A stretch of DNA of 64,000 nt, from NCBI GenBank assembly GCA_963668315.1, contig OY764216.1, positions 352,001 to 416,000 on the forward strand. The letters are read 5' to 3'. Under the pieces are notes generated by a model. It was not told the origin of the DNA. It did not search any database and saw only the letters and a program-made list of their open reading frames with translations. The translations under genes were made by a program, and so were the position numbers. This DNA comes from Spirochaetia bacterium. GTDB lineage: Bacteria > Spirochaetota > Spirochaetia > DSM-2461. Below are positions 5,944 through 46,775 of the stretch, in pieces. Numbering within the stretch: position 1 is the stretch's first letter; every line of letters starts with the position of its first letter.

Positions 5944-6076
5944 GGAAAGCCTTACATCCGACACGTATATTCCGCACCAACGCCGGGATTGGGGGGCTTC
6001 CCCCTCAGGGGGAACCGGGCCGCCGCTTGTACTCCTCGGCCGGCGAGCCGCCCTGCGGGGTGGCCGCTCTGTCCCT

Positions 6077-6159
6077 GCCCCGGACGCATGGGCGAGCAGC
6101 AAACCGGGCACGGTTTGTGACCAGCCCCGGACGCATGGGCGAGCAGCAAACCGGGCACG
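6077..6159. repeat. Two identical 36-bp palindromic direct repeats (REP-like) separated by 11 bp
   Basis: GCCCCGGACGCATGGGCGAGCAGCAAACCGGGCACG at 6077-6112 and 6124-6159; each has a CCCGG...CCGGG terminal stem. Confidence 0.9.
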
Positions 6160-6211
6160 TATGGATTTTCCGGAAGAACGGGGCTATAGTATAATAAAAG
6201 AAGGATCACCA

Positions 6212-6910
6212 ATGAAACTTCTCAAACCCCGGGTTTATCTGTTCCTCACCCTCTTGATCGGTGTCACGGCACTCCTGCTTGTTCTGACCCTGAAAAGGCC
6301 GGCGACACCGGAACCCGACCTCCTCGGCATCATTCTCTGGACAATCGTCGCCGTATTGAGCGAATCCCTGTCCGTGTACTACGTTAACGGAACGTTCTTC
6401 GTCTCCCCCATCGAAGCGGTCTTCTATGCCGCCTACCTCTCCTGCGGCCCCCTCACAGCGGCCGTTTCCATCTCCCTGACGTTTCTCCTGATCGTGACCC
6501 GAGACGAAAACCGCTACCGCCACATATTCAACACTCCCCTCCGGTATATTCTCTTCAATATCTTCCACTTCATGCTCATCATGCTTATCCTTGACGGCTT
6601 TCTTACTCTCTCCCAAGCCCTTCTCCCCTCCCTGCGGATTCTACCGGTCCTTGCGGCGGCCCCCCTCTTCTTCACTCTGTCCTGCCTGATTAACGCCGCC
6701 CTGTACAAGGTGGAAGACGGCGAATCTTTTACCGCCGCCTTCAAAGAGATGTTTGATCCCTATTACCAGACAGCCTTTCCCGCCAGCCTGGCGGCAGTCA
6801 TAATCGGATTCGCCTATCTGCGGTACGGACTGCTTTCCATCCTCATCATGATCACTCCCCTCCTCGTTACCCTGATTACGATTAAAGCCCAGGTACGGGA
6901 CAGCCGATGA
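6212..6910 (+). CDS. Integral membrane protein resembling a stand-alone MASE-type sensor module
   Basis: About 7 TM segments; 'SESLSV..', 'GPLTAA', 'HIFNTP..ILFN' recall the membrane N-terminus of Firmicutes HD-GYP proteins; TATAAT 6190-6195 and AAGGA RBS before ATG 6212. Confidence 0.7.
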   Translation: MKLLKPRVYLFLTLLIGVTALLLVLTLKRPATPEPDLLGIILWTIVAVLSESLSVYYVNGTFFVSPIEAVFYAAYLSCGPLTAAVSISLTFLLIVTRDENRYRHIFNTPLRYILFNIFHFMLIMLILDGFLTLSQALLPSLRILPVLAAAPLFFTLSCLINAALYKVEDGESFTAAFKEMFDPYYQTAFPASLAAVIIGFAYLRYGLLSILIMITPLLVTLITIKAQVRDSR

Positions 6911-8748
6911 TACTCCTTCTGGTGCTCTACACATCACTGCCCGTTCTTCTCACAGCCCTATCCATCGGAAATACAGGCACAGCCTTCTACGGCGGATTGG
7001 GCCTCTTTCTTTTACAGACAACGGCGGAGGTCCTCATTTTCCGGTCGAGAAACAGACGCCGGCTCATTCCGGGAGCGGTTCTCTTTTTTACCATCCTAGC
7101 AGGAGCCGTTACTGTTGCCGCCATGAGACTTGACCCGTCCTATCTGCTCCTTCTCCTAGACCTCTATCCCGGCCCTCTGCTTACGGTGTCCTATGTCATT
7201 ATCTACAAGATTTCCCGTCCCCGGGACTTCGGGAAGATTTCCCCGGGATTCAACCGCATCATCATCCTCCTTATTTCCTACGCCGCCTTGCTCCTCATGC
7301 TCCGGTTCCGCAGGATAATTACGGCAACCCCTGCCCCCTCCGTCCGGGATATATTCTTCGCCTTCTACGGAGCCGTGAATCTCCTCCCCCCCATCTACTT
7401 TCTCAGGACGCTGAGAGACAGCTCCCTCACGCGGATTTACAGAAAAGAAGGGAGGATATGGCTCCGGAACGAGGAGATAACCTCCCTTTTCAGCCGGACG
7501 GAGCTCTCCCTCCTGAACCGGGCGTTCAAAGGAGACGGCCGGATTCTCTGCCGGGATCTGGTAGAGGATCTAAACGGCGGGGAGTCTCCGGGAAAATATC
7601 TCTGCCGACCGGGAGAGTGCAAGGCATCCCTCTGCCCGGCCTATGCCGCCATCTACCGCCATATAAAAAGCTTAGACAGGAAAATGGAGAATCTGGGCCT
7701 CGGCATGCTTATGCCCCCGGAAAATAAAAGGGATATCATAACGGAGGGCTGGCTTTTTATCAGGAACAAGGAAGTTCGGATAATGAGAAAACGTTCCTTT
7801 CCCCTGAAGATTCCCGCCGCATACAGCCCGGAGAACAAAACGGAAAAAAGTAAGTTCAGCGCGGCTCTCCCTTTACTTCTCGCCATAGCTTTCACCGGAG
7901 CCTTTGCCCTCTGCTCAGAAGGATTATCCCTGGCCGGTCTCCTTCCGGCACCTCAGCTGCTTTTCCCCCTCACACTTACCACGGCATGCTGTCTGCTTTG
8001 TCCCCTGATGGGACAGCCGAAATGGTCACGGTTCATCCCCACATTGATCCTCCCGCTCCTTTCCTTAAGCCTTATCGGCCCGGCGGGGGAAGCCCAGGCC
8101 CTCTTCCTCTCACTGAAGTCAATCGTCCTATTCATCATCTGCTTTCTAATCCGATTTCCCGCTCTTGAGACTCAGCTCGATTCGGCCCTGCTAAAAGAGC
8201 AAGCTCCCAACGCCCTTTTCTGGCTTATCTGGTTCTACATGATCCTTCTCTCCCTTTTCATTGATCCCCTTTTCACCGATGCGTCGCTTCTCCGAAACAG
8301 CGAAGCTCTGCCCCCGAGCCCTCCGGTTTCGGAACGGCTTCTGCTCTTTCTTCTCTTTGCCCTTTCGGCCGGTTTTTTCAGTTTGTCCCGTAAGGCACTT
8401 ATCGTAAAACAGGAGAAGATTGAATTTAACGGCCGGGTTCTGCCCGAAGGACTGGGGAAAACGGACAGAATAATTTTTCGGGAGTTTATTCAGCGGCGAA
8501 GGCGGCCTTTACACTGCTATGAGATTCTCGAACTGATCAGCCCGGGGAAAAAAGCAAACAGCGGCGATGACTGCAAGCCCAGCTCCTGCCCGTCTTATCA
8601 GAAGATCTACAAAAGAATCCAGACCATAAGAAAATATCTCCAGACAACGGGAATCGGCACGATAGCCAGCCCGGAACGCAAAGTCTCCTCTCACAAGGAG
8701 GGATGGCGCCTGATCCTGTTCGATGACGTTTTCATAAAAAACGATTAA
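6907..8748 (+). CDS. Membrane protein with two tandem [multi-TM + Cys-containing OmpR-like winged-helix] units; putative membrane-tethered regulator
   Basis: ATGA overlap with upstream gene; internal duplication 'C..CKxSxCPxY..IY+xI..++...GxG...PExK...EGW' at ~7435-7785 and ~8398-8742. Confidence 0.7.
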   Translation: MILLLVLYTSLPVLLTALSIGNTGTAFYGGLGLFLLQTTAEVLIFRSRNRRRLIPGAVLFFTILAGAVTVAAMRLDPSYLLLLLDLYPGPLLTVSYVIIYKISRPRDFGKISPGFNRIIILLISYAALLLMLRFRRIITATPAPSVRDIFFAFYGAVNLLPPIYFLRTLRDSSLTRIYRKEGRIWLRNEEITSLFSRTELSLLNRAFKGDGRILCRDLVEDLNGGESPGKYLCRPGECKASLCPAYAAIYRHIKSLDRKMENLGLGMLMPPENKRDIITEGWLFIRNKEVRIMRKRSFPLKIPAAYSPENKTEKSKFSAALPLLLAIAFTGAFALCSEGLSLAGLLPAPQLLFPLTLTTACCLLCPLMGQPKWSRFIPTLILPLLSLSLIGPAGEAQALFLSLKSIVLFIICFLIRFPALETQLDSALLKEQAPNALFWLIWFYMILLSLFIDPLFTDASLLRNSEALPPSPPVSERLLLFLLFALSAGFFSLSRKALIVKQEKIEFNGRVLPEGLGKTDRIIFREFIQRRRRPLHCYEILELISPGKKANSGDDCKPSSCPSYQKIYKRIQTIRKYLQTTGIGTIASPERKVSSHKEGWRLILFDDVFIKND

Positions 8749-8865
8749 ACCGCTCCGAAAACAACTCGTTTCCGTACGATTTCCTGCCCCTCCGACTTGT
8801 TTTTCAAGGGATGATAGGAAACCGGTGCTATGTTGGAAACAGAAATAGTACAAGGCGGTTTAGTT

Positions 8866-10257
8866 ATGAATAAAAAGAAATCCAGCTTAATCCTCGCCAT
8901 TACAGGGGCTTTCTTCCTGGCCGGCTGCCCCGACGGAACATCGACCACGGAACAGCCGGAGCAGAACAATAGCGGCGAGATCACAGACATAACCGAGGAA
9001 AACATTAAAGATATGATTGTTCTTTTTCAGGAATGCACGGAGTGTAAAGAAGTTCATGACGATGCACTCGTCCCCGGTTCGGGAGTGGCCTACAATCAGA
9101 CGACAGAAACCCTTACTTACACCAGCTACGATATATCGGGGCTCTCCTTTAACACGACCGGATTCCAGACTCTCTCGGGAACCGTCTCCCTAAACGGCCC
9201 CGGAGGGGATCTGGCGTTCGACCTGACGGTTACGGGCGCCGTAACCTGGCATATTCAGTTTATCCTGGAAGACTCGAATCCCCTGACTGTCACCATTAAC
9301 GGCACGGTATATAAGATCGATTTTTACGTGGAAGAAGAACCGCAAGAGATGCCGGAGAACTGGTACAACGGTAACGAGGCCCATACGAGCTCGGTGGTTC
9401 ATACGCCCCGCTGGCCCGACGTAAGCCAAAGGATCAGCGTTCCCTCCGACAGCGCCTATTGCTCGGCTTCAAGCGGAGAAGCCCTGGTAGCAAGCGAAAC
9501 CCCCTACGCTGCGGATTTTTCCTACAACGGAAAATCCTACCCCTTCTCCTGCAAGGGATGGGCCGATGTCAATTCCTCCGGTCCGGGAAACGTCTCCATG
9601 CAAGCCGGCTCCCGGCTGAACGTGACGGGCATAAACTTTCTCAACGCCTCTTCGGACATGGAATACCAGGCCTTCGGAACGGCGTTCTATGACGCCTACT
9701 TCTCCGTCCTCTCGGACAATCCGGAAACAACCCGGGTAAAGATGACCTTCTCCGTTTCCTCCGGAGCGCACCTGACCTACTCCATTGACGAAACGAACCA
9801 TTACGCCACGTCCTTCACGTCCTTGACCGCCGACGCCGATATTTACAGAATGGCCTGGAGGAACAGAGAGACGGGCGGCTACTGGTGGGGACCGACGGAC
9901 CACATCGCCGGCGGGGGCTCCGGGGAAGCGGCCGGTTACGCCGTCATAGGATTTACCGATTATTACGGGGGGAGGGGCACGGGAATGTTTCAGGGGCAGA
10001 TAGAGGCCGACAGCGATGACGTCACCGTTACGGGAACGGAAGTCCTGACCTGCGTAATTACCCCCGAAACGGAAATGTTCAGCCTCAGCCTGAGCATCAT
10101 GGCCCGCTCGATTTCGGAATTCACGGGCATACACACCGGCCTGGAAGGGGAAGCCGTAGCAGTTTGCGAAAACGCCGAAATGTCCTACACCTATACAGCC
10201 GTCGATCCGGACCACCCCGATGCGAACATTACCGTAAAGTTCTACCCCGCCCCCTGA
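8866..10257 (+). CDS. Lipoprotein of unknown function (Thr/Ser-rich, beta-rich)
   Basis: 'MNKKKSSLILAITGAFFLAG|C' lipobox; AGGCGG RBS-like sequence before ATG 8866. Confidence 0.8.
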   Translation: MNKKKSSLILAITGAFFLAGCPDGTSTTEQPEQNNSGEITDITEENIKDMIVLFQECTECKEVHDDALVPGSGVAYNQTTETLTYTSYDISGLSFNTTGFQTLSGTVSLNGPGGDLAFDLTVTGAVTWHIQFILEDSNPLTVTINGTVYKIDFYVEEEPQEMPENWYNGNEAHTSSVVHTPRWPDVSQRISVPSDSAYCSASSGEALVASETPYAADFSYNGKSYPFSCKGWADVNSSGPGNVSMQAGSRLNVTGINFLNASSDMEYQAFGTAFYDAYFSVLSDNPETTRVKMTFSVSSGAHLTYSIDETNHYATSFTSLTADADIYRMAWRNRETGGYWWGPTDHIAGGGSGEAAGYAVIGFTDYYGGRGTGMFQGQIEADSDDVTVTGTEVLTCVITPETEMFSLSLSIMARSISEFTGIHTGLEGEAVAVCENAEMSYTYTAVDPDHPDANITVKFYPAP

Positions 10258-10266
10258 GAATTCCCC

Positions 10267-10300
10267 GGCGGGAGCCCCTCCTCCGGGTTCCCCGCCATTT
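10267..10300 (+). terminator. GC-rich hairpin after lipoprotein gene, probable terminator
   Basis: GGCGGGAGCCC...GGGTTCCCCGCC followed by a short ATTT tail. Confidence 0.5.
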
Positions 10301-10327
10301 GACACAACCCCCGGGAAATAATAAAAT
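10299..10327 (+). promoter_or_regulatory. Near-consensus sigma70 promoter TTGACA-17-TAAAAT
   Basis: TTGACA 10299-10304, TAAAAT 10322-10327; implies ATG 10338 start with a very short, SD-less leader. Confidence 0.75.
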
Positions 10328-10337
10328 GAACCTGCCT

Positions 10338-11519
10338 ATGAAAGACACCTCACACAAGGGTTTAACTGCGGGAATCGCCCGCTTCTTTTTTATTGTTCCC
10401 CTCCTGTTTCTCGCATCATGCGGGAGCGACAAATTCACCACCCTTGTGAGAAAGGACCTTTTTTCCCTCTCCCTGGGAGTAATGGAAGACGAACTGGACT
10501 ACTATTTCCAGGAAGACCACTTCCTCCCCGGCCGGGGAGATCTCTTCATGAGCGACGGTCTTTTTTATATCAGTTCCTCTTCGATGAGTAAAATCATGGG
10601 TTTCAATTCCTATGGCGACCTCCTGTTCCTTCTCATGGACGATACGAAGAACCCCCCTCCCGAACTGGGAGAAAACGGACGGAATTCCAATAAGCAGTAT
10701 GCCTCCTGGCCTTTCCGCGAAATCGGTCAGATTGCCCTGAACGGAGACACCTTCCTGGTGGAAGACCAGGTCTCCGAAGATAAAAGGGTGTACGATAACG
10801 ACCTTGAATCGCTCTGCTCCCGCATCGTCCTCCGTTTCGACAGAGACGGGAACTACCTGGATTTCCTGGGAAAGGAAGGGATCGGCGGCACGCCGTTCCC
10901 CTACATCAAAGACATTCGGGTAAGGAAAAACGGCGAGTTCCTCGTCCTGTGCCAGGTCAGTCTGGGACAGCAGGTCTTCTGGTACTCCTCCGAGGGCGAG
11001 CTCCTTTACCACATCATCATCGATAACGACAACCTTCCCATGTATGAAGAGGGCTACTGGGGATCTCTGGTCGGCCTGTCCTGCCACCCCGATCAGTATA
11101 AACTCTATATCCTGGCCGATTATTATCCCGATAACCTCGAACTGGTGGAGGACAATTCGGTCCGCCGCCTTTACACCCTTAATCTTGCCGACCAGAAATA
11201 TGACGGGGGCATACGGATCCCGGAAATGATCGTCAGGGCGGAGGGTCAGGAAATAAGATATATCTACGATCTTCTGGGAACAACCGACCAGGGCGTCCAC
11301 CTGCTGCTCTCCAAAACGGGTACGGCGGCCAACTCCCTCATAGCCATCAACGAAGAGGGAAAGATTCTCTTCAACCGGAGCCTGGAGCTTTTCGACAAAC
11401 CGGAACTCTTCACATCCTACTTTCTCTCCGACGAGGGGATGCTCATGGGGCTGACTTTTCTCAATACCGAGGCTCCCGTCTCCTGGTGGAGAAGCGATAA
11501 GCTCCTGAACAGGGACTGA
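10338..11519 (+). CDS. Spirochete lipoprotein (LIC_12708-like, probable beta-propeller)
   Basis: Lipobox 'LLFLAS|C'; 'LFSLSLG..EDELD', 'FNSYGDLL', 'FLGKEGIGGTPFPYI' recall this spirochete family (from memory). Confidence 0.7.
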   Translation: MKDTSHKGLTAGIARFFFIVPLLFLASCGSDKFTTLVRKDLFSLSLGVMEDELDYYFQEDHFLPGRGDLFMSDGLFYISSSSMSKIMGFNSYGDLLFLLMDDTKNPPPELGENGRNSNKQYASWPFREIGQIALNGDTFLVEDQVSEDKRVYDNDLESLCSRIVLRFDRDGNYLDFLGKEGIGGTPFPYIKDIRVRKNGEFLVLCQVSLGQQVFWYSSEGELLYHIIIDNDNLPMYEEGYWGSLVGLSCHPDQYKLYILADYYPDNLELVEDNSVRRLYTLNLADQKYDGGIRIPEMIVRAEGQEIRYIYDLLGTTDQGVHLLLSKTGTAANSLIAINEEGKILFNRSLELFDKPELFTSYFLSDEGMLMGLTFLNTEAPVSWWRSDKLLNRD

Positions 11520-14644: not shown

Positions 14645-16126
14645 ATGCCAGCTGCTCAATTACACGAAAAAGTCAAGAAAGCGATAAGACTCTCTTTTCC
14701 TCTTACCATAACATCTTACAAGCTCCCCCGGGAGACGGAGGAGCAGCTGGAAGAAATACTGGGGATGTATCTGAGAGAATTGGGTCTTGAGGATTACAAG
14801 GATCCTCTGGCTTACTGCATGAAAGAGCTGGCGGTAAACGCGAAAAAAGCCAACACCAAGCGGGTCTATTTCGAAGAGAGAGATCTGGACATAGGCGACA
14901 AGATCGATTACCAGAGAGGGATGGTGGACTTCAAAGAGGAAACCCTGAGCAATCTGGACCACTACCTTACTCTACAGAAAGAGAAAGGGTACTATATCAA
15001 GTTTACCTTCACCGTCGCCGGCGGCATGTTCAAACTGACCATCAGGAATAATGTGGAAATCAACCGGACCGAGCAGATGAGAGTGTACGACAGAATCGCC
15101 CGGGCCCGGGCCTTCAACTCTCTGGAAGAGGCCTTCGCCGAAGTTCTCGACGATTCGGAAGGAGCCGGACTGGGTATCGTCATACTGGTCCTCATGCTCA
15201 AAAAGATGGGCTTTGACGAGGAAGCCTTCGAAATCGACGGAGAGGGGGGCGAAACCGTCGCTTCGCTGCTCATTCCTCTGACGGGCGAGCGCTACTCCGC
15301 TCTGGACACCATTGTTGACGAAATCGTCGGCGCCATAGACAAACTGCCCCAGTTCCCTGAAAACATAACGGAAGTGCAGCGCCTTATCAATGATCCCGAT
15401 TCTGAGATAGAAGATATCGCCCGTCGCATCAATTCCGACCCGGCTCTGGCGGCGGACCTTCTCAAAACCGTCAATTCCGCCCAGTTTATGCTGCCCAACA
15501 GGGTCAGCAATATTCCCGATGCGGTCATGCTCCTGGGATTCCGGGGAATAAAGAATATGCTCTACTCCTACGGAACGGAGAAAATCCTCAATATATCCGA
15601 TCATGAGAGCTATATGTGGGACCATGCCCACCGGGTGGGATTTTACGCCTACACCCTGGCCCGTAACATTACCAAGAAAAAAGATGTCATTGACGACGCC
15701 TACCTGGGAGGAATTCTCCACGACATAGGATTGATAGTCCTTCAGGGAATCCGTCCGGAGCTGATCGAGCATATCCGTGACTTCTCCGTGGAAAAAGGCC
15801 TTTCCGCCCAGCTACTGGAAGATATGGCCGCCGGATACAACCATTCGGAAGTGGGATCGCGGATCGCGGAAAAATGGAATTTTCCCCCCTCCCTGGTGGA
15901 TGCGATCAGATACCATCATGTTCCCCTCCAGTGCCGTTCACAGAACAAGGCCGTTGTCTACTGCATATACCTGGCGAACTGCCTGGCCAACATAGAGACG
16001 GGCTCCTACTCCTTTGAACAGCTGGAGAAAAAGATTCTGGATCTGTTCAAAATAAGCAATGAAAGCCGGTTTACCGAACTGCTGAATCGCCTGTCTGCCG
16101 ATTATGAAGCGGAAAGAAAACTCTAA
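14645..16126 (+). CDS. HDOD domain protein with N-terminal HATPase_c-like domain
   Basis: N-terminal 'KELAVNA..N', 'GAGLG'; C-terminal 'LPQFP', 'DPALAADLLKTVNSA', 'LHDIG', 'HSEVG..IAEKWNFP', 'RYHH'. Confidence 0.85.
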   Translation: MPAAQLHEKVKKAIRLSFPLTITSYKLPRETEEQLEEILGMYLRELGLEDYKDPLAYCMKELAVNAKKANTKRVYFEERDLDIGDKIDYQRGMVDFKEETLSNLDHYLTLQKEKGYYIKFTFTVAGGMFKLTIRNNVEINRTEQMRVYDRIARARAFNSLEEAFAEVLDDSEGAGLGIVILVLMLKKMGFDEEAFEIDGEGGETVASLLIPLTGERYSALDTIVDEIVGAIDKLPQFPENITEVQRLINDPDSEIEDIARRINSDPALAADLLKTVNSAQFMLPNRVSNIPDAVMLLGFRGIKNMLYSYGTEKILNISDHESYMWDHAHRVGFYAYTLARNITKKKDVIDDAYLGGILHDIGLIVLQGIRPELIEHIRDFSVEKGLSAQLLEDMAAGYNHSEVGSRIAEKWNFPPSLVDAIRYHHVPLQCRSQNKAVVYCIYLANCLANIETGSYSFEQLEKKILDLFKISNESRFTELLNRLSADYEAERKL

Positions 16127-16187: not shown

Positions 16188-18758
16188 GTGAAACACTGGA
16201 AAAGTCATTTCCTGATCATTCTCCTCTTCTTCTCTTTCACTGTCTTCGGCCAGGAGACAGGGCCTGCGTCAGGAGTGCTGACCCTGGAAAGCGATGTTCT
16301 ATCTGAACCGGTGTCCCTGGCGGGCGAATGGGATTTCTATCCGGGAATACTCTCTTCCGAGCCCTGGGAAAGGGAAAGCCCCCTGAAGGTGACCCTCCCC
16401 GATAACTGGGATGAATACAACGGCAGTCACTTCGGTGCGGGAACCTACCGCCTGCATATTATTCTGCATCAGAAGCAGAACCTGATGGCTCTCTGGGTAC
16501 GGGAGAATGTCCAGGCCATGAGAATCAATATCGACGGAGAAAATATCTACGCCACCGGCAGAGTCAGCCCGGACGGCAAAGACGCCTACCCCGGGATGAA
16601 CGGGCGGCTGGCCATATTCCATCCACCGGCAAATGAATTTGACCTGACGATAGAAGTGTCCAACTGGCATCACAGACTCAGCGGCCTGAATATGCCCATC
16701 TTTCTGGGCACCTACGATGTTCTTTCCAGACATTTTGCCAAACTGGCCTCGCTGGATATATTCATCATGGGTATTGCCTTCTCCTTCTTCTTCCTCTATC
16801 TCTCTTTTTATATTAAAAGGCCGGAGAACAGGGTCACCCTCTGGTTCGCCCTCCTCTGCCTGTCCATGGGGATCCGCATCGGCCTGACCAATACATCCCA
16901 GCTTGAATCGTTCCTGGGAGAGGGCTGGGTGATCATCAGCAAGAAGACCGAATATCTGACTTTCCTGGGAGCCGTTTTCTTCTTCGTTTACTATATCGAA
17001 TCCCTCCTGACGAAATTCAAAGTAAGCTGGTTTGCCACCATCTTCATGATCCCTCTCTATTTCTACGCCCTGATTATTATCTTCACGCCCATGACGGTTT
17101 ACTCCTTTCTCCTGCCCTTTTTTCAGTTCTACTCGCTTATCTTCGTTTTTTACCTGATGTTTATACTCTTCAAGGCAAGGAAGAATCCCAGCGGCACGTC
17201 ATACCGTCTCTTCGGAGAGTGTCTCTTTATGATTGCCTGCCTCGTTTACGATGTTCTGTTCTATAACGGGTTCTTTAAAAGGGGTCCCATAGCCAGCTAT
17301 ACCCTATTCACGGTCATCTTTATGGAAGGCCTGTTCCAGGCGGGTTTTCTCTCAAAAATCCTGAACAGGCTGGAGATTCTCACGGAGAAATACCGCAGAA
17401 GCATAGAAGAGATAAGCCAGAGCCGGCTGGAGATTGAGCAGCAGAGCAAACAGCTGAACTGGCTCGCCCTTTACGATCAGCTCACCGGGCTGCCCAATCG
17501 GTATAACCTGACGGAAGTACTGAAGATAGGCATATCGCGGGCCGAAAGAAATAGAACCAAAATAGCCGTTCTCTATATGGACCTTGATAATTTCAAGGAT
17601 ATCAACGATTCGCTGGGCCATAACCGGGGCGATGAACTCCTGCGCCTTGTCTCCGAAAGATTCCAGAACAGCATCCGGAAGGTGGACTCCCTGTTTAGAA
17701 TGGGGGGAGATGAGTTCGCCCTGGTCTGTTCTGACCTGGCGGCCAAAGAGCAGGTGGAAAGCATTCAGGATAAGCTGATTAAGGCCCTTAAGGACCCCTT
17801 TCTCATCAAAGACCAGCCGCTGAAGATCTCCCTGAGCATAGGTGCCGCCTTCTTTCCCGACGACGGGGATAATATGGATATCCTCATAAAGAATGCCGAA
17901 CTGGCCATGTACCAGGCCAAGAATCATGGGAAAAACCATTTCGTCCCCTACAATGATAATATCCATAACAACAGACTCTCCCGCATCAATCTGGCGAATA
18001 AAATGAAGAGAGCCCTGGAAGTGGGCCACTACAAGCTCTACTATCAGGCCCAGATAGACGGCTCCACCGGCAAGCTCTACGGCTTTGAAGCGCTGATACG
18101 CTGGATCGATCCGGAAAACGGGATTGTCCCCCCCGACAAATTCATTCCCATCGCGGAAGAGAACGGCTTTATAGCCCAGATAGGCCGCTGGACTCTCCAG
18201 GAAGCCTGCCGCCAGATAAAGGAGTGGAGGGACAGGGGGTTCAGCGGCTTTACCGTGTCGGTGAATATTTCGGCCTACCAGTTCGGGCTGGACCATTTTA
18301 TCTTCGATTTCCGGGAGATTCTGGAGAAAAGCAAAATCGATCCCTCCTTCCTAAAAGTGGAACTGACGGAGACTCTGCTCATGGCCAACCCCCATCTGGC
18401 CCAGAGAAAGATGGAACAGCTTCAGGAGATGGGCGTGAATATCGCCCTGGACGACTTCGGAACGGGATACTCCAGCCTAAGCTATCTGAATATTTTCCCG
18501 GTGAACTACCTGAAAATTGACAAGGCCTTTATTCGGGATGTCCACAAAGACGGTTTTAACAAAAAGCTCACCACGAGCATCATTTCCCTGGCGAAAAACC
18601 TCGAGCTCGAACTTATCGCCGAAGGTGTGGAAACGGAAGAGGAGAAGAATTTTGTCGTGGAACAGGGCTGCCACATCATTCAGGGATATGTCTATTCCAA
18701 ACCGGTCCCGGCCCAGAGGGCTGAGCTCTTCTTCACCACAGCGGCCGCGATCTCCTGA
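16188..18758 (+). CDS. 7TM-DISM-type sensor diguanylate cyclase/phosphodiesterase (GGDEF + EAL)
   Basis: Signal peptide, jelly-roll 'LAGEWDFY..LPDNW..GTYRL', 7 TM, intact GGDEF with RKVD I-site, 'EALIRW', 'DDFGTGYSS'. Confidence 0.92.
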   Translation: MKHWKSHFLIILLFFSFTVFGQETGPASGVLTLESDVLSEPVSLAGEWDFYPGILSSEPWERESPLKVTLPDNWDEYNGSHFGAGTYRLHIILHQKQNLMALWVRENVQAMRINIDGENIYATGRVSPDGKDAYPGMNGRLAIFHPPANEFDLTIEVSNWHHRLSGLNMPIFLGTYDVLSRHFAKLASLDIFIMGIAFSFFFLYLSFYIKRPENRVTLWFALLCLSMGIRIGLTNTSQLESFLGEGWVIISKKTEYLTFLGAVFFFVYYIESLLTKFKVSWFATIFMIPLYFYALIIIFTPMTVYSFLLPFFQFYSLIFVFYLMFILFKARKNPSGTSYRLFGECLFMIACLVYDVLFYNGFFKRGPIASYTLFTVIFMEGLFQAGFLSKILNRLEILTEKYRRSIEEISQSRLEIEQQSKQLNWLALYDQLTGLPNRYNLTEVLKIGISRAERNRTKIAVLYMDLDNFKDINDSLGHNRGDELLRLVSERFQNSIRKVDSLFRMGGDEFALVCSDLAAKEQVESIQDKLIKALKDPFLIKDQPLKISLSIGAAFFPDDGDNMDILIKNAELAMYQAKNHGKNHFVPYNDNIHNNRLSRINLANKMKRALEVGHYKLYYQAQIDGSTGKLYGFEALIRWIDPENGIVPPDKFIPIAEENGFIAQIGRWTLQEACRQIKEWRDRGFSGFTVSVNISAYQFGLDHFIFDFREILEKSKIDPSFLKVELTETLLMANPHLAQRKMEQLQEMGVNIALDDFGTGYSSLSYLNIFPVNYLKIDKAFIRDVHKDGFNKKLTTSIISLAKNLELELIAEGVETEEEKNFVVEQGCHIIQGYVYSKPVPAQRAELFFTTAAAIS

Positions 18759-35088: not shown

Positions 35089-36621
35089 TTAACGGGCGTA
35101 TTCCACTACCCGTGTCTCTCTGATGATTGTCACCCGAATCTTACCGGGGTATTTCAGCTCATCTTCAATTTTCTTGGCGATATCCTTCGCCAATTCCTTG
35201 GCCCTGCTATCGTTGACCCTTTCGTTATCGACCATAATACGAAGTTCACGGCCTGCCTGTACGGCGAAGACCTTATCCACTCCCGTGAAGCTCATGGCAA
35301 TTTTCTCGAGATTTTCCAATCTCTTGATATAGTTATCCATAGTCTCACGGCGGGCACCGGGCCTGGCCGCCGAGATGGCATCGGCTACCTGAACGATAAC
35401 CGCTTCCACACTCTCGGGCTGAACATCGTTATGATGAGAAGCCACGGCATTGACAACAGCGGGAGATTCACCCATTCTGCGGCAAAGCTCGGCACCGACC
35501 TCGGCATGGTTTCCCTCACCGTCTGTCTCAAGCCCTTTACCAATGTCATGAAGCAATGCAGCTCTCTTGGCAATGGTAACATCGGCTCCGATTTCGGCAG
35601 CGATCATACCGGCCATAACGGCGACTTCCTTGGAGTGTGCCAGAACGTTCTGACCGTAACTCGTTCTGAAATGGAGACGCCCCAATCCCTGAATTCCATC
35701 GGGCTTCACATCGTGAATACCCAGATCAAAGAGAAGTTTCTCCCCCTCTTCAAAGATCGTCTGACCAATTTCTTTGGCTACCCTCTGAACAACTTCCTCG
35801 ATACGGGCCGGGTGAATCCGTCCGTCCGAAACAAGCCGCTCCAGAGCAATCTTGGCAATAACTTTTCTAATGGGATCAAAACAGGAAATAACAACTGCTT
35901 CCGGAGTATCATCGATAATGATATCAACTCCCGTCAGAGTTTCGAGTGTTCGGATATTCCGCCCTTCCCGTCCGATGATCCGCCCTTTCATTTCATCATT
36001 GGGCAGACTAACGGATGTAACGGTAATTTCGGAGCTGATGTCCGTAGCCAGCCTCTGAATAGTGGTGACCAGAACATCCCGGGCCTTTTTATCCGCCGAA
36101 AGCTGGGCTTCGGCTTCAATCTTATTAATAAGAGCCTGGGCATCATGCTTGGCGTCATTCTCAAGATTCGCTATGATTAATTTCTTAGCCTCTTCCTGAG
36201 TCAAGCCGGAAATGCGTTCCAATTCCGTTCTAAGCGTCAGTTCCTGATCCTTCAGTTCCTGCTGATTTCTTTCTAACTCTTTTTCATTTTCAGAAATTCG
36301 ATTCTGGGCTTTCTCGATCTCCTGAGCTTTCTGCTCCAGATTATCTTCTTTTTGCTGAACCCTTTTCTCAAACCGTTGAAGATCGGTGCGTCTATCCCTC
36401 AGTTCTTTATCGAACTGACGACGCTCTCTCATTATCTGGTCCTGAGCTTCAAGAAGAAGACTTTTCTTCTCCTGTTCCGCTTCCGTTACCGCATCCAGCT
36501 TCAGTCTGGCAGCTCTCTGCTCAGATGAAGACAGTTGATAGCGGGAATATATCCATCTAATTAACCAACCAATTGCAACACCGGCGAGGGAAAGGATTGT
36601 AGTCACTAATGCAGGCGACAT
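35089..36621 (-). CDS. rny: Ribonuclease Y
   Basis: N-terminal TM, coiled coil, KH 'KGRIIGREGRNIR', HD 'LLHDIGK', 'SAARPGAR'. Confidence 0.97.
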   Translation of the reverse strand: MSPALVTTILSLAGVAIGWLIRWIYSRYQLSSSEQRAARLKLDAVTEAEQEKKSLLLEAQDQIMRERRQFDKELRDRRTDLQRFEKRVQQKEDNLEQKAQEIEKAQNRISENEKELERNQQELKDQELTLRTELERISGLTQEEAKKLIIANLENDAKHDAQALINKIEAEAQLSADKKARDVLVTTIQRLATDISSEITVTSVSLPNDEMKGRIIGREGRNIRTLETLTGVDIIIDDTPEAVVISCFDPIRKVIAKIALERLVSDGRIHPARIEEVVQRVAKEIGQTIFEEGEKLLFDLGIHDVKPDGIQGLGRLHFRTSYGQNVLAHSKEVAVMAGMIAAEIGADVTIAKRAALLHDIGKGLETDGEGNHAEVGAELCRRMGESPAVVNAVASHHNDVQPESVEAVIVQVADAISAARPGARRETMDNYIKRLENLEKIAMSFTGVDKVFAVQAGRELRIMVDNERVNDSRAKELAKDIAKKIEDELKYPGKIRVTIIRETRVVEYAR

Positions 36622-36651
36622 ATTTTTCCCCTAATTTACGATATTACAACC

Positions 36652-36679
36652 ATTATATAGGTAATTCTACCTTTGTCAA
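36652..36679 (-). promoter_or_regulatory. Consensus sigma70 promoter TTGACA-16-TATAAT for rny operon
   Basis: Perfect hexamers 30 nt upstream of rny ATG; AGGGG RBS in the leader. Confidence 0.8.
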
Positions 36680-36729
36680 GAAAGATATTTTCACCCTGAC
36701 ATGCATGCTGAGCCGGGGTTAGAGGGAAT

Positions 36730-39252
36730 CTATGAGAGAAAAAGCAATTCGTTGGGATTGGAGCTTTTCTCTTTGAACCCAAGCATGAGATAAACCTTCT
36801 CTCCCCGGTATATCAATGGCATGAAAAGCAGGGAGTTAACATATTTAAAAGCAATCCAGTCCCAGTTCTGCCCCAGGAATGTACTCTTTTTCGCGCCGTC
36901 AATACCGACAATTTTTCTTTTATCCAGAATATCGGTACACAGTTCGGCTGATTTTTCGATAAGATAATCCTCGGGGTACCTGTTCATACCGATGGAGAGA
37001 ACCGCTTTATACCCCCCCTCTTCCCGGGCAATGATAACAGCACACTGGGCATCGATTTTACGGGAGTAATCAAGGAGAGCCTTATAAGCACCCCGTTCAT
37101 TATCCACATACCCCTTCCTATAGGCGTCAAAATCAAACCCGTCCTTAGCCAGGGGGATGGATTCCGTGCCGGTATCGGTAAAAAGGAAGCCGTCTTCTTC
37201 AAAACTGACATCGGGAAAGAGACCTTCAGACTTAACGGAAATGAGAGAATCCATACCAAAATCTTTGGCAGAAACAGTTTGACTGTCATCCCCGGGTCTA
37301 TCACTTTCAGATAGATTCTTATTACCCAGTTCAGTCATCACCTCTTCCAATGTAAAAAGATAATGGATAGAATCATTTTCATCATCAAGTTCTTCCAGCA
37401 CCTCAACCGATTCCATCTCTTCCAGATCGTCTTCAAAAGGTTCAAGATCACCTTCTACATCTTTAGCGGCCATTGCATTACTTCCTTCCCATGAAGGCAG
37501 CAGACCTTCGGTATAATCTTCCAGCTCTTCCAGATCCGCTTCTTTGTCAACTGCTTCAACCATGGGTAATTCTTCTAATTCCTTATTATCTACAGGCAAA
37601 TTATCAAGGGACAGCTCTTCTAAAACTTCCAGTTCCTCGACTTCATCCAGTTCCTCGGCTTCATCCAGTTCCTCGGCTTCATCCAGTTCCTCGGCTTCAT
37701 CCAGCTCTTCGACTTCATCCAGCTCTTCGACTTCATCCAGCTCTTCGACTTCATCCAGCTCTTCGACTTCATCCAGCTCTTCGACTTCATCCAGCTCTTC
37801 GACTTCATCCAGCTCTTCGACTTCCGTCGAAACCATATCCGTGTCGCCGTCATCATCAAGAGATTCCACCTGGACTGGTTTCATGCCTGCAAAAGGACTG
37901 TCGCTCTTACTAACGCCGGGAACCTCTTTCGTAGTTGTTGCTGCCGAAGAAACAGTATTTACCGGGAAGGAAATCTGAGCTGATTCCAGTGCTTTCCTGA
38001 TCAGTTTTTCCAATTCATCCGGATCAATAACTGCCTTAGTCTTTCTCTCCTCAGCCTGCTTATTGTGATAAACGGCCAGTATATCGATGATTTCCTGCCA
38101 GTTTTTATTCAGAAGCTTATCGATTTCGCTTTCATCACCCTTGAGTTTGATTGCTTTTTTAAATTCCCGGTAATACTCAATCTTTCGAGACTGTAATTCC
38201 CGATCCCAGGCATCCCATTCCAGAGATTCCCGACTCTCAAGCCAATTCCGCAGGAAGTTCAATTGAAACTTTTTCAATCGTTCATTCAGGATGACCAGAC
38301 TGTCCTGTCTGACATTTAACAGGAGCAGGAGAAATAGGAAAAGAGTGATAAATACCACTATAAAAAAAAGAAATCTTAACAGTTCGGGGATTTCAAAGGT
38401 CTTATCATCCAGAAGAATTCCCCAGCTGACCTCCCCCTTGTAAGTGATCAGACTGAAGCGGCCGTCACTTCCATCCTCTACCATGGGCACAACTAAGTCG
38501 GGAGATTCTTTCTGCCAATTCTCAACGACAATTTCCCTGACCTCTTCATATAATGCTTCCGGTACATCAAGAACAAAACCCTGAGACCCCATTATCCGGA
38601 TCGTACTGGGATCGGAAATAATACCTTCCGATATAAAATCGTCCTTAATCCCCTGAAGAGTAAAAGCAATCAGGGCTGTTCCTCTGAAAAGCCCGTAGTT
38701 ATCCATTGAGGGGAGGGAAAGGAAGAAACGGTTGCTTGCACCATCAAGATAAAAGATATCAGAAGATGTTAAGCTGTCTTCTCTTTCATAAAGTCCGATT
38801 TGTTCATGAAAATCTTCAAGATCTACCCAGTTTTTATATACAATTTTCTGATTGTTCCTCAACAATACATCATTATCGGATGTACTATAATGAACACGCT
38901 GACCATCGGTATCAATGATACGGAGAGATTCAAATCCCGGCAGATCCCTGTGAAGTTTTTGAATAAGCCTGTCCCGTTCGACAATATCCTTATCCAACTG
39001 TTCAAGATCAAAAACTTTTGTGAAAGCCCCTGACTCTACAAAAAGGGATAATCTTTCATGGAGGGATCTTTTGTATTCGGAAATGAGCTGGTCGGAATAG
39101 GCCAGGATGCCCGATTCACGATTTATGACAGACTGGCGGTAGAGACGAATTTCAAAACCCTTAAAAACACCGGCCCCGGAGAGGAAAAACAATCCGCCGG
39201 TCATTAATAGGGTGAGAAAAAAACTTAATGAAATTTTCGTCGTACTTCGCAT
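36730..39252 (-). CDS. Hypothetical membrane protein: TM-Cache-like-TM-coiled coil-acidic repeat-GAF-like
   Basis: Two TM around a ~270-aa periplasmic region, (EVEELD)n repeats, C-terminal alpha/beta domain; ATG 39252 chosen as start. Confidence 0.75.
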   Translation of the reverse strand: MRSTTKISLSFFLTLLMTGGLFFLSGAGVFKGFEIRLYRQSVINRESGILAYSDQLISEYKRSLHERLSLFVESGAFTKVFDLEQLDKDIVERDRLIQKLHRDLPGFESLRIIDTDGQRVHYSTSDNDVLLRNNQKIVYKNWVDLEDFHEQIGLYEREDSLTSSDIFYLDGASNRFFLSLPSMDNYGLFRGTALIAFTLQGIKDDFISEGIISDPSTIRIMGSQGFVLDVPEALYEEVREIVVENWQKESPDLVVPMVEDGSDGRFSLITYKGEVSWGILLDDKTFEIPELLRFLFFIVVFITLFLFLLLLLNVRQDSLVILNERLKKFQLNFLRNWLESRESLEWDAWDRELQSRKIEYYREFKKAIKLKGDESEIDKLLNKNWQEIIDILAVYHNKQAEERKTKAVIDPDELEKLIRKALESAQISFPVNTVSSAATTTKEVPGVSKSDSPFAGMKPVQVESLDDDGDTDMVSTEVEELDEVEELDEVEELDEVEELDEVEELDEVEELDEVEELDEAEELDEAEELDEAEELDEVEELEVLEELSLDNLPVDNKELEELPMVEAVDKEADLEELEDYTEGLLPSWEGSNAMAAKDVEGDLEPFEDDLEEMESVEVLEELDDENDSIHYLFTLEEVMTELGNKNLSESDRPGDDSQTVSAKDFGMDSLISVKSEGLFPDVSFEEDGFLFTDTGTESIPLAKDGFDFDAYRKGYVDNERGAYKALLDYSRKIDAQCAVIIAREEGGYKAVLSIGMNRYPEDYLIEKSAELCTDILDKRKIVGIDGAKKSTFLGQNWDWIAFKYVNSLLFMPLIYRGEKVYLMLGFKEKSSNPNELLFLS
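37627..37824. repeat. Coding tandem repeat, 11 x 18 bp (EVEELD/EAEELD)
   Basis: 7 x ATCCAGCTCTTCGACTTC (37699-37824), 3 x ATCCAGTTCCTCGGCTTC (37645-37698), 1 hybrid unit (37627-37644). Confidence 0.97.
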
Positions 39253-39275
39253 CGCTATCCTGTTAGCCAATATCC

Positions 39276-39307
39276 AAAAAAAATAGGAAGAACAATAGTC
39301 CTTCCTA
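39276..39307 (-). terminator. Intrinsic terminator ending the ribosomal protein supercluster
   Basis: TAGGAAGGAC-TATT-GTTCTTCCTA-T8 downstream of rplQ. Confidence 0.85.
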
Positions 39308-39384
39308 CTTATTATCGACAACTGATGCTCTGAAAGTTAGCACTAGTTTTCTCTTTAATTGTCTGAGGATTTTAACTCCTCAAT

Positions 39385-39873
39385 TTACTCATCCACCTTT
39401 TCTTCGGCGGGAGCTTCTGCAGGAGTTTCGGCCTTTTCTACAACCTTTTCCTCAGCAGCTTTGGGGGCAGCCTTTTTGGGGGCGGCCTTTTTGGCTTTCT
39501 TGGGCGCAGCTTTCATTTCTTCTTCTACAAGCTCAAGAATAACCATTTCCGCAGCATCACCTTTCCGGCTGCCGATTTTAAGGATTCTGGTGTATCCACC
39601 GGGTCTTTCCTTAAACTTGGGGGCGATTTCAACAAACAGTTTGTTGATAACGTCCTTTTCCTGAACGGTTTTTGCGACGATTCTTCTGTTATGTACAGAA
39701 TCAACCTTGGCGCGGGTAATCATTTTTTCCGCAGTTCTGCGAATCTCACGAGCCTTGGCTTTGGTTGTCTTAACTCTCTCATACTTAAGAAGAGAGGTAA
39801 CCATGTTTCTCTCAAGCGCTTTTCTATGGCTTGATTTACGGCCTAAACGGTTAAACCCGATTCTATTATGCAT
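39385..39873 (-). CDS. rplQ: 50S ribosomal protein L17 (with Lys/Ala/Glu-rich C-terminal tail)
   Basis: '[10 protein letters not shown]', '[10 protein letters not shown]', 'RKGDAAEM'. Confidence 0.97.
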
Positions 39874-39874
39874 C

Positions 39875-40915
39875 TTACTCTTCCTTCTTCTTTTCCAATT
39901 TTATAGAATTCTTGAGAACGCTATAATCCACCATACCGAGACTCAGATTCCATTCCTTCAACCTTTCCTTGATCTCAGTAAGAGACTTCTTACCGAAATT
40001 CCTGGTTTTGGCAATTTCATCTTCGGTCTTTCTGGTAAGATCACCAATGGTTCTGATATTGGCGTTCTTCAGACAGTTGCTGGACCTAACTGAAAGTTCA
40101 AGTTCTTCTACAGGAGTATCAAGAAGCTGGCGGATTTTTTCTTCTTCCTCATCAACTTCTTCATCACCAATAACGCTGTCTTCATCAAAATTAATAAAAA
40201 CCGTAAAGTGGTCCTTGGCAATCTTTGATGCTTCAGCAAGGGCATTTTCGGGAGAGATAGATCCATCAGTCCATACTTCAAGTATAAGCTTGTCGTAATC
40301 CGATCTCTGTCCGACACGGGTATTCTCAACGGTATACTTCACTTTCGTAATGGGAGAATAAATGGAATCGACGGGAATCGTTCCAATTGTCTCTATATAC
40401 TTCTCATGCAGCTCCGCGGGAACATAACCCCGTCCCAGGTCAATCTGAACTTCCATATCTAAATTTGCCCCATCCATAAGGGTACAAATATGATGGTCGC
40501 CATTAATAACCTCAACGCCATTTTTCTCAAAATCGGCGCCGGTTACTTTCTTCTGCCCCTTGCATTCAATGTTAATCGTCATCTCTTCAACATCTTCGGG
40601 AAGATTCAGTTTAAGAGATTTGAGGTTGCTGATAATCTCAGGGGTATCCTCTACGCAGTGAGGAATAGGTTCGAACTCGTTGGAAACAACATGGGACGAA
40701 CCATCCTCGGCGTATGCAGTAACACGAATAGCTGATATGGCATATCCTTGAATAGAAGAAAGGAGAACACGCCTTAAGGTATTACCTACAGTATTACCAT
40801 ATCCTCTTTCAAAAGGATAAGCGGTGAACTTTCCATAGGAAGTATCCTCTTCCTTGTGTTCAAAGGTAATTCCTTTAGGTCTCTTAAAACCTTTGAGGAG
40901 ATTTTTTCGTGCCAT
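39875..40915 (-). CDS. rpoA: RNA polymerase alpha subunit
   Basis: '[19 protein letters not shown]', alpha-CTD '[11 protein letters not shown]', 'NFGKKSL'. Confidence 0.98.
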
Positions 40916-40935
40916 TTTGACTCCTTTAACCTAGA

Positions 40936-41316
40936 TTAAACTCTTCTACTCTTCTTAGGACGACAACCATTATGGGGAATCGGAGTAATATCCTTTATGC
41001 TTTTTACCTGCAACCCCATGGCTCCCAAGGAGCGGATGGCAGATTCGCGTCCCATACCGGGACCCTTAACAAACACGTTTACTTCCTTAAGACCGTAATC
41101 CCGTGCTCTGCTCGTAGCGGTTTCGGCAGTGGTCTGCGCCGCATAGGGAGTAGATTTCTTAGCTCCCTTGAAGCCGAGAGAACCGGCACTACTCCAGGAA
41201 ATAGTATTTCCCTTAAGATCGGTAACGGTTACGATCGTATTATTGAAAGTAGCCTGAATGTATACATTACCTTCAAATACCGTCTTTTTCTCTTTCTTTT
41301 TCTTCGCTTTAGCCAA
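40936..41316 (-). CDS. rpsK: 30S ribosomal protein S11
   Basis: 'ATFNNTIV', 'KKSTPYAAQ', 'PIPHNGCRP'. Confidence 0.98.
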
Positions 41317-41334
41317 CTCTATTTCCTCCGCTCA

Positions 41335-41700
41335 CTACTTCTTCTTTTTAGCTACGGTTTTGGCCTTACCCTTACGAGTACGGGCATTGGTCTTGGTTCT
41401 CTGACCACGAACGGGGAGACCTCTTCTATGCCTGAGGCCCCGGTAACAACCGATGTCCATCAACCGTTTGATGTTAAGGGCCGTTTCAGATCTGAGACGT
41501 CCTTCAACTTTGTATTCATTTTCAATGACCTGTCTTAACTCATTTACTTCTTCCAGGCTAAGATCATCCATTCTTTTCAGGGGATCTACACCGGTTTTAT
41601 CGCAAATTTCTCTGGCCGATGTTCTACCGATCCCGAAAATGTATGTTAATGCGATTTCTGCATGTTTGTTAGGTAGGTCAATACCAGCAATACGAGCCAC
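41335..41700 (-). CDS. rpsM: 30S ribosomal protein S13
   Basis: 'ARIAGIDLP', '[18 protein letters not shown]'. Confidence 0.98.
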
Positions 41701-41710
41701 TTATAGCCTC

Positions 41711-41824
41711 CTACTTCTGTCTCTGTTTATGTTTGGGATTCTGGCAGACGATTCTTAGAACGCCTTTCCTTCTAATTACTTTACATTTGTCACAAATGGG
41801 TTTTACACTTGCTCTAACCTTCAT
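41711..41824 (-). CDS. rpmJ: 50S ribosomal protein L36 (Zn-binding type; below ORF-track cutoff)
   Basis: Hand translation [44 protein letters not shown]. Confidence 0.97.
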
Positions 41825-41847
41825 ATTATACCTCTTTTTACTCCGTA

Positions 41848-43179
41848 TCACAGATTTCTGGATTTGAGTTTTCCTCCCTTAACAAGCCCATCATGATGAT
41901 GCATCTTTAAATGCCCTTCAATCTGCGACATGGTATCAAGATCAACTCCCACAAGGATAAGCAGTGAAGTACCGCCCATCAGATAGGAAATCGACGTGGG
42001 AAAATTGAATACCAAAACCACGAGCGAAGGAATAAGCGCGATGAGTGCAAGGAAGAGAGAACCGGGCAATACAATCCGGTTCAGTATTTTGGTCAAGTAC
42101 GCTTCCATATTCTCGGAACGGATTCCGGGAATAGAACCACCGTTTTCTCTGATCTGTCTGGCAATTTCTATGGGGTTCAGTGATACCTGAGTATAGAAAT
42201 AGGCGAAGAAGACAATCAAGAGAGTATATGTTATAAGATACGCCGGACCACGAGGTCGGAGAAAACTTGCAAATGCAGCCCAACCGGAATGGGAAGGACC
42301 AAGCATGGATGCTACCGTCAAAGGCAAAGTCAAGATGGAAGAGGCGAAGATAACCGGAATAACTCCGGAAGGATTGATCTTCAGGGGTATATAGGCATTC
42401 TGAGCTCCATACACTTTTCTTCCCACAATACGCTTTGCATAGTGAACGGGAATCTTCCGCTGTCCCTGCTGTTCATAAATTACCATAATGACAACGCCGA
42501 CAAACATCATGAAAGCGAAGATTACGAATACAGGGTTGATGTTCCCCATTCCAATCTCGCTCACAAGCTGCGCTACGGCTCCAGGCATTCTGGCAACAAT
42601 ACCGGTAAAAATAACAAGGGATATACCATTTCCAACACCCTTCTCATTTATCTGTTCTCCGATCCACATGAGAAACAAAGTTCCCACGGTTACTGTTAAT
42701 ATGGCGACTGCATTAAACTTCCAGCCGATAAGGCCGGGGTTAATTATGTCTGGAATCGTTCGTGCGTACTGAGTTACGGTAAAAGACTGAACCAAACAAA
42801 CGACGACCGTACCATATCTGATATATTTCTGAATCTTTTTTCTTCCTCCGTCTCCCTCTGATACTCTTTTAAGAGCAGGGAAAACGAGAAGAAGAAGCTG
42901 CATGATAATAGACATAGAAATATATGGCATAATACCAAGCATAAATACAGAAAAGTTCTTAAAAGCTCCACCAGCAAAGAAGTCGAGATAATCGGTTAAA
43001 CCGAGTCCTCCGCTCTGACCGGTCTGAGTAAGAAAATAAGAGTTCAGGGCCTGTACATCAATACCGGGAATCGGCAGGACCGCACCGATCCTGAAGACTA
43101 AAAGCATCCCGAGGGTGAAAAGCACCCGTTTTCTCAGTTCCTTTACTCTAAATATTCTAGCAAGAGCATTATCAGCCAT
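41848..43179 (-). CDS. secY: Preprotein translocase SecY
   Basis: 10 TM; 'LGIMPYI', 'GVGNGISL', '[10 protein letters not shown]', 'IPGIR', 'GGTSLLI'. Confidence 0.98.
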
Positions 43180-43194
43180 ACAAACCTATCCCGA

Positions 43195-43644
43195 TTAATT
43201 TTTTTCTGCAACGGATCCGCCGGCTTTGACAATTTTGTCCTTTGCCGTTGCGGATACATTCGTTAATTCTACCTCAAGTTTCTTCTTGATGTCACCATTG
43301 CCAAGTATTTTTACGTTTGTTTCACTTTTTTTGATCAAACCCTTAGCAACAAGTGTCTCCAAGTTTACCTTTTCACCATCTTCAAAGAATTTTTCCAGAA
43401 GATCCAGGTTAACAGGAACAGCCGTTTTTTTGAAGGGATAATTGGAAAATCCCCGGGCAGCAACACGGCGGAACAGAGGCATCTGTCCACCTTCAAAACC
43501 GATGGATACACCACCACCGGAACGTGCTTTCTGTCCCTTATGGCCTTTACCGGATGTTTTACCATGACCGGAACCGTGACCACGGCCAACCTTTTTTTTA
43601 TTTTTGTTAGCTCCCTCAGGAGCCTTAAGCTTCATATCACTCAT
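43195..43644 (-). CDS. rplO: 50S ribosomal protein L15
   Basis: 'GRG.GSG.GKT', 'FEGGQMPL'. Confidence 0.97.
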   Translation of the reverse strand: MSDMKLKAPEGANKNKKKVGRGHGSGHGKTSGKGHKGQKARSGGGVSIGFEGGQMPLFRRVAARGFSNYPFKKTAVPVNLDLLEKFFEDGEKVNLETLVAKGLIKKSETNVKILGNGDIKKKLEVELTNVSATAKDKIVKAGGSVAEKN

Positions 43645-43841: not shown

Positions 43842-43843
43842 AA

Positions 43844-44347: not shown

Positions 44348-44358
44348 TACCTGTCCTC

Positions 44359-44718: not shown

Positions 44719-44731
44719 AATACACCACTAC

Positions 44732-45271: not shown

Positions 45272-45283
45272 ACCATACTCCCC

Positions 45284-45688: not shown

Positions 45689-45697
45689 TTCACACTC

Positions 45698-45883: not shown

Positions 45884-45894
45884 CTACAAACTCC

Positions 45895-46766: not shown

Positions 46767-46775
46767 GATTAACTC

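Follow-up and report, generated by a model that had tools for sequence, protein, structure and literature searches.

Transmembrane transcription regulators carry a transmembrane (TM) region and a DNA-binding domain in one chain, as described in the available part of PMC10269533. In ToxR, CadC, TcpP and the VtrA/VtrC pair, the DNA-binding domain is N-terminal and is combined with one TM helix and a periplasmic sensor, according to the accessible portions of PMC5430869 and PMC9214523; VtrA/VtrC form an obligate heterodimer with a lipocalin-like periplasmic sensor. MASE9 is presented in the available part of bioRxiv 10.1101/2021.11.05.467447 as a polytopic sensor thought to bind its ligand within the membrane and fused to HD-GYP or GGDEF-EAL outputs. 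Here we analysed a window of 64,000 nucleotides from a Spirochaetia bacterium (GenBank assembly GCA_963668315.1, contig OY764216.1, positions 352,001 to 416,000 of the forward strand) that encodes a 613-aa protein. This protein is most likely a variant of the transmembrane transcription regulators, working like ToxR/CadC and the co-component systems and placed outside those families by its architecture. Judged from sequence comparison and predicted structures, it is probably an inner-membrane activator of the adjacent surface-lipoprotein gene, acting through a site at 8763-8783, with a structural Zn ion in a four-Cys loop and a MASE9-like protein supplying the signal.

A sequence-only reading of this DNA had claimed an internal duplication and quoted a motif for each copy. 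Both motifs were found in the 6907-8748 ORF, which consists of two copies of six predicted TM helices followed by a winged helix:

6907-8748, forward strand: tandem transmembrane transcription regulator, 613 aa
6907-7425, forward strand: TM block 1, residues 1-173, six predicted helices (AlphaFold model, pLDDT 89.9)
7429-7791, forward strand: winged-helix domain 1, residues 175-295 (VIA, Foldseek)
7855-8379, forward strand: TM block 2, residues 317-491, six predicted helices, conserved FWxxW motif
8392-8745, forward strand: winged-helix domain 2, residues 496-613 (VIA)

The two soluble domains match each other at 36% over 66 aa (E 2e-14), and BLASTP gave no meaningful match between the two TM blocks among the matches listed. 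Since a profile of the single-unit relatives matches both halves of the protein (E 1.5e-44 and 7.6e-45), the whole unit was duplicated. AlphaFold models of the full length (6 sequences, pLDDT 64.6) and of residues 1-298 (61 sequences, pLDDT 89.9) show six helices before each soluble domain, where about 5-6 had been suggested, and each winged helix lies C-terminal to its TM block, as had been read, the reverse of ToxR/CadC. The even number of TM helices and the basic loops after TM2, TM4, TM6, TM8 and TM12 (the loop after TM5, also basic, is an exception to this charge bias) predict that both winged helices are cytoplasmic, as anticipated. The modelled chain therefore unites TM helices with a predicted DNA-binding domain, the combination that marks a transmembrane regulator. 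The protein has no paralog in the 5.6 Mb genome and no match in the plasmid collection. Structural matches of TM block 1 were only generic helical bundles (Z up to 8.3), so no fold was assigned to the TM block; Anabaena sensory rhodopsin, a profile match at E 0.02, was discarded as its relative because the structural search returned such bundles alone.

Both domains model as the OmpR/PhoB winged-helix fold that had been proposed for them, with the beta sheet, three helices and beta-hairpin wing present in either copy. The best VIA match of domain 2 was CosR (Z 9.8, rmsd 2.6 over 93 residues), and the first 43 rows were all OmpR/PhoB-family domains. Domain 1 matched the AdeR DNA-binding domain (Z 8.0, rmsd 2.5 over 86 residues) in an unbiased search of 48,161 chains, where AdeR tied with generic helical bundles matching the TM part. 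VIA Z values of 8-10 for the two models are moderate support for the fold. Foldseek gave domain 1 a prob of 0.97-0.98 at E 0.5-0.6; its best OmpR/PhoB rows overall reached prob 0.92-1.0, yet with weak E-values (0.3-1), and Atlas leads linked the protein to OmpR/PhoB-type clusters at 0.85-0.87. Helix 3 starts with YAAIYRHI in domain 1 and YQKIYKRI in domain 2. Neither the protein nor 70 relatives matched Trans_reg_C (PF00486) or any other Pfam family, NCBIfam and PDB sequence searches returned no significant family, and Pfam found no receiver domain N-terminal to the winged helices, a position taken by the TM blocks. The regulator family is unrecognised by the domain libraries searched (Pfam, NCBIfam), and Pfam-based censuses of transmembrane regulators, the method of PMC10269533 as given in its available part, would thus miss it. 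We found no description of the family in a literature search that left most subscription papers outside; the supplements of the transmembrane regulator census and of the MASE9 work could bear on this.

Domain 2 retrieved relatives amounting to 86 representatives at 50% identity, comprising 18 tandems of 558-671 aa, 48 single units of 295-375 aa and, for the rest, fragments; those homologs that bear names stem from MAGs of Spirochaetales, Spirochaetia and Marispirochaeta. One of the 86, P0030, was removed as a repeat-protein artefact. Whole-genome searches, which covered Spirochaetota genomes, found the family in 4/401 genomes sampled across the phylum and 3/38 of the order and, with a better profile, in 35/401 genomes of the class Spirochaetia, eight of which have intact tandems; most copies in Spirochaetia genomes are single units. 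A search aimed at longer fused forms returned proteins of 308-625 aa only, which is weak evidence against such forms. In a midpoint-rooted FastTree tree of the domains, the first copies and the second copies cluster as sister groups, as a single old duplication would predict. The family members and this tree support the proposed single-chain pseudo-dimer as one apparently derived from a one-unit ancestor. Six predicted TM helices and one winged helix are the basic unit of the family, two diverged copies of which are fused in the 6907-8748 gene. Predicted periplasmic loops of the single units contain the conserved polar motifs HRD (30/48) and RxEPR (31/48), both found in 0/18 tandems. In one member (P0084) the six-TM block is replaced by a periplasmic-looking domain between TM segments, an architecture indicating that the four-Cys domain can take another input. 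Broken tandems were seen at three loci: L004, where one tandem is split into three ORFs, L096 and L097.

Three conserved Cys next to the recognition helix, plus a fourth Cys or His, had been noted. Their position and conservation stand, but the family norm is four, kept in 93 of 97 scored domains: 62/63 of single units and fragments, 16/17 of tandem first domains and 15/17 of tandem second domains (two domains missed by the script's anchor were left out of this tally; both have four Cys by eye). In the predicted models one lies where helix 2 begins, two lie in the helix 2-helix 3 loop and one opens helix 3, the recognition helix. Domain 1 has the full set, C215-x17-C233-x4-C238-x4-C243, and domain 2 has C537, C556 and C561, with the second Cys of the set missing. 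Logan contigs from three runs of the source sample, not independent because the runs share that one sample, show no other letter over 6130-10400, so the missing residue is no evident assembly error; His536 or Asp554/555 could stand in for it. One Cys is likewise absent from the second domain of P0003 and another from the first domain of P0004, and these losses in three domains imply that a full set of four ligands is dispensable.

In PhoB-type domains the transactivation loop runs between helices 2 and 3. The available part of PMC5430869 names the transactivation loop as needed for polymerase binding. Cys1-Cys4 probably bind one Zn ion and shape the corresponding loop here, and such a structural Zn site is judged likelier than a redox or Fe-S switch. 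With regulator and targets the same, the four Cys might instead hold a labile Fe-S cluster or form disulfides, and the DNA-binding domain would then sense oxygen, NO or redox state and gate activation. The near-invariance of the Cys in a loop equivalent to the transactivation loop would suit this, as would the spacing in single units, mostly C-x(14-24)-C-x2-C-x9-C, which loosely recalls C9/C37/C40/C46 of WhiB1, a 4Fe-4S factor contacting sigma region 4 (PMC6282962, available part). We nevertheless consider a redox role unlikely: the spacing varies freely (x2 to x5, x4 to x9) between single units and tandem domains, the latter being mostly C-x(9-18)-C-x(3-5)-C-x4-C, three domains tolerate the lack of one Cys, the neighbours that we saw include no redox or Fe-S genes, and a separate membrane sensor module is already there.

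That sensor module would be the product of the gene preceding the regulator:

6212-6910, forward strand: stand-alone MASE9-like integral membrane protein, 232 aa, likely co-sensor (Atlas, co-occurrence)

Its stop codon overlaps the regulator start in ATGA, and the 6212-6910/6907-8748 pair thereby shows the overlapping partner gene typical of co-component systems. The best Atlas match (0.96, 221/256 features) is a cluster with MASE9 (PF20972) on 22% of its members; over the clusters matched at 0.96 the share is 22-32%, and the Pfam profile itself matched none of 7 partner-family members. The 17 relatives of the partner are all 216-239 aa long, within the length range searched. Among 401 Spirochaetia genomes the partner occurs in 10, including 8/8 with an intact tandem vs 2/393 others, the two exceptions being a genome whose tandem is broken and one where the gene sits at a contig end; the partner was found in no genome that has single units only. 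Homology between the partner and the single-unit TM block was rejected (hhalign probability 0.9%). The HRD and RxEPR motifs of the predicted periplasmic face may have been lost from the tandems, which may have acquired the MASE9-like partner; its role would be to bind a ligand within the membrane or on the periplasmic side and to relay the signal by helix contact. In L002 and L004, lipoprotein genes and an MscS gene are flanked by a pair of divergent MASE9-plus-tandem modules. The intergenic region between murE and the MASE9-like gene contains two 39-nt GC-rich direct repeats, 47 nt apart (6074-6159), which are REP-like; the genome has one more partial copy, and the contig depth is raised. Elsewhere in the window, 14645-16126 encodes a 493-aa protein with, by eye, what we take to be a HATPase-like N-terminal and an HDOD-like C-terminal part, adjoined by 16188-18758, presumably a 7TM GGDEF-EAL-like gene. 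The low-GC stretch (42-48%) at 36000-56000 is a cluster of ribosomal protein and RNA polymerase genes and no foreign island.

Comparison of upstream regions yielded a candidate operator downstream of the regulator gene, in front of a lipoprotein gene:

8763-8783, forward strand: candidate operator, class A, asymmetric, 21 bp, consensus AACWYGTTTCCGYACGWTTT (upstream-region comparison)
8826-8834, forward strand: extended -10 element, TG-C-TATGTT, predicted for the lipoprotein promoter
8866-10257, forward strand: predicted target lipoprotein, 463 aa, lipobox Cys at residue 21

Three motif classes are common to the upstream regions and follow the regulator tree: the tandems have class A (AACWYGTTTCCGYACGWTTT), single units with YRN[YL]KNR in helix 3 have class B (GGCGCACGTGCGCC), and class C (AGTCCATATGGACT-like) belongs to several clades that read YxxIYNxI there. 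A class A matrix built from 9 other sites ranked 8763-8783 top in the 5.6 Mb genome, at 30.9 bits vs 17.1 for the next match. The sequence-only reading had expected direct-repeat operators, an expectation that found no support in that form: the single-unit relatives adjoin 14-bp palindromes, and the tandem site is asymmetric, with a best inverted symmetry of 6.5/14 and a weak 10-bp direct repeat (mean 4.0/6). Single units would dimerise in the membrane and read palindromes, and the tandem fusion may have fixed a heterodimer in one chain, allowing an asymmetric site. An inverted repeat at 8758-8803 (11-nt arms, 24 nt apart) overlaps the candidate operator; it may act as a weak terminator for the regulator operon or be what is left of a second site.

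A -10 box of the form TAnnnT lies 30-31 nt after the palindromic sites in 18/24 cases vs 2.6% per position elsewhere, the orientation of each palindrome in this count having been chosen by the analyst, and 38-39, 48-49 or 59-60 nt after class A sites in 10/10. Shifting the class A frame 2 nt upstream, to the core that G598 retains, brings it into the same phase as the palindromes. The -10 element at 8826-8834, which a generic sigma-70 scan did not list, is 49 nt past the core site, in the same 10-bp phase as in relatives. Class A sites would end about 43, 53 or 63 nt before the transcription start, which in the window is predicted near 8841; they would lie upstream of -35 in a single helical phase, where an activator is expected to bind.

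The genomes are related, so the site and locus tallies that follow overstate independence. The class A pattern matches 17/401 genomes, 7/8 with an intact tandem and 10/393 others; the 7/8 is mostly in-sample, since the pattern was built from 6 of those 7 genomes. The ten tandem-less genomes matching the loose pattern were set aside as chance, 7 matches lying inside long ORFs and none before a lipoprotein gene. Out of sample, four sites far from any regulator in the tandem-bearing genomes G486 and G467 precede lipoprotein genes; in these two genomes 8/10 class A matches do so, against 0 in the backwards control. In G645 and G598 class A sites lie between the MASE9-like gene and a lipoprotein gene, and G598 and G490 have two inverted copies. 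Class B sites occur at one to two places per genome, beside the regulator in 4/5 genomes, and class C sites in 5/5 chosen genomes and in 2/38 genomes of the window's order; three distant class C sites precede lipoprotein genes with the -10 at 31 nt. Upstream of a hybrid sensor gene (7TMR-DISM, histidine kinase, receiver, LuxR) at L094:2318-5158 and L123 there is a class B site, suggesting that some family members may head a regulatory cascade.

The 463-aa lipoprotein of the window matched no Pfam family or recognised domain, and it has an ortholog (37%) at locus L001. A lipoprotein-like neighbour of at least 200 aa is present at 16/42 family loci vs 9.2% of the genes in the window's genome; the 42 loci are those with both neighbours visible, after exclusion of 9 near-duplicate or truncated ones, and the rule gave one false positive and one false negative by eye. 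The remaining 26/42 include one clade in particular, in which mostly no site was found either; the intact tandem of G620 (L095) has no lipoprotein next to it, and that genome showed no class A site between genes. The target lipoproteins of relatives vary by locus, with FGE-sulfatase-like, FG-GAP, cadherin-like, Ig-like, LRR, CBM4/9, Listeria-Bacteroides repeat and RCC1 domains, and the domains predicted in them are of adhesin type. The single-unit regulator at L085 (4957-5946) and at L087 (4944-5933) has a lipoprotein gene on either side. One of these genes carries the regulator's own class C site, the other a class A site, which suggests cross-control by the tandem regulator that the same genome encodes elsewhere.

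These data also bear on two readings that change the role of the protein. Were the domains devoid of specific DNA binding, the sites would belong to another factor or be RNA elements, and the lipoprotein link would reflect shared cassette mobility. The absence of any sequence-level match to Trans_reg_C or the PDB, the 26/42 loci without a lipoprotein neighbour and the resemblance of class C palindromes with A/T flanks to terminator hairpins all point that way; against them stand the three site classes that track three regulator clades with different recognition helices, the fixed spacing to the -10 and the rarity of the sites (one to five per genome, only in genomes with a matching regulator), and we hold this reading to be highly improbable. 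Alternatively, the protein binds its site but represses, or is activated by regulated proteolysis or membrane release, with the MASE9-like protein as stabiliser or inhibitor in place of ligand sensor. Associated proteins are known for such regulators (ToxS, TcpH, LysP; PMC10269533, available part), the divergent loci have two inverted class A sites facing both promoters, where autoregulation of either sign is possible, and both the window and L001 have a CAAX-protease-like gene 3 kb upstream. That gene is missing from the other tandem loci examined, domain 1 is tethered to TM blocks at both ends, and a position upstream of -35 in fixed helical phase is rarely needed by repressors, which makes this alternative quite unlikely. 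Activation from the membrane through 8763-8783 is the reading that we favour.

Since the output would be the display of adhesin-type lipoproteins, our guess is that the MASE9-like partner and the regulator respond to a surface, host or envelope cue. A bolder and doubtful generalisation is an undescribed spirochaete signalling class of polytopic membrane activators. Their OmpR-type domain would have a metal or Fe-S centre in the loop that contacts polymerase, a duplication would have turned a palindrome-reading homodimer into a one-chain heterodimer that reads an asymmetric site and has a free MASE9 protein recruited as its receptor, and a membrane cue and a redox cue would be integrated to control adhesin display. 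With operators, promoter geometry and targets predicted for three clades, direct tests become possible of the DNA-recognition rules, of how fusion of the genes changed a symmetric site into an asymmetric one, and of what a four-Cys loop does in an OmpR-type domain. Furthermore, the system suggests how free-living spirochaetes control variable surface lipoproteins. A lipoprotein promoter reporter would offer a read-out for the MASE9 ligand. If the bolder generalisation is true, this would be the first free-standing MASE9 whose ligand can be sought through a direct transcriptional read-out.

Compared with the OmpR/PhoB effectors (CosR, AdeR, SaeR, PhoB), the domains have in common the predicted fold, which spans about 90 residues (Z 8-9.8, rmsd 2.2-2.7), and the likely activator position upstream of -35. 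They differ in having no receiver domain, 10-18% identity and no Pfam match, a four-Cys insertion between helices 2 and 3 and an extra short helix inside the wing. PhoB sites are tandem repeats, whereas the sites here are palindromic or asymmetric. As a transcription factor with four conserved Cys, the first gap long and two of the Cys forming a CxxC pair, the family resembles the WhiB-like factors (PMC6282962, in its available part), but the fold is another one, the protein is membrane-anchored, the host is one of the Spirochaetia and not of the Actinobacteria, and the WhiB G[V/I]WGG motif is absent from the family alignments. The partner shares with MASE9, as characterised in the accessible part of bioRxiv 10.1101/2021.11.05.467447, a polytopic membrane domain (Atlas 0.96); in contrast to the fusions reported there, it is encoded on its own and teams up with a DNA-binding protein. 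With ToxR/CadC/TcpP and VtrA/VtrC, as far as the available parts of PMC5430869 and PMC9214523 describe them, the system has in common a membrane-anchored OmpR-type domain, an overlapping partner gene and the control of surface factors. Unlike ToxR/CadC, it places six TM helices before the domain, lacks a periplasmic domain and duplicates the unit in one chain, and its partner, unlike that of the VtrA/VtrC heterodimer, is polytopic and MASE9-like.
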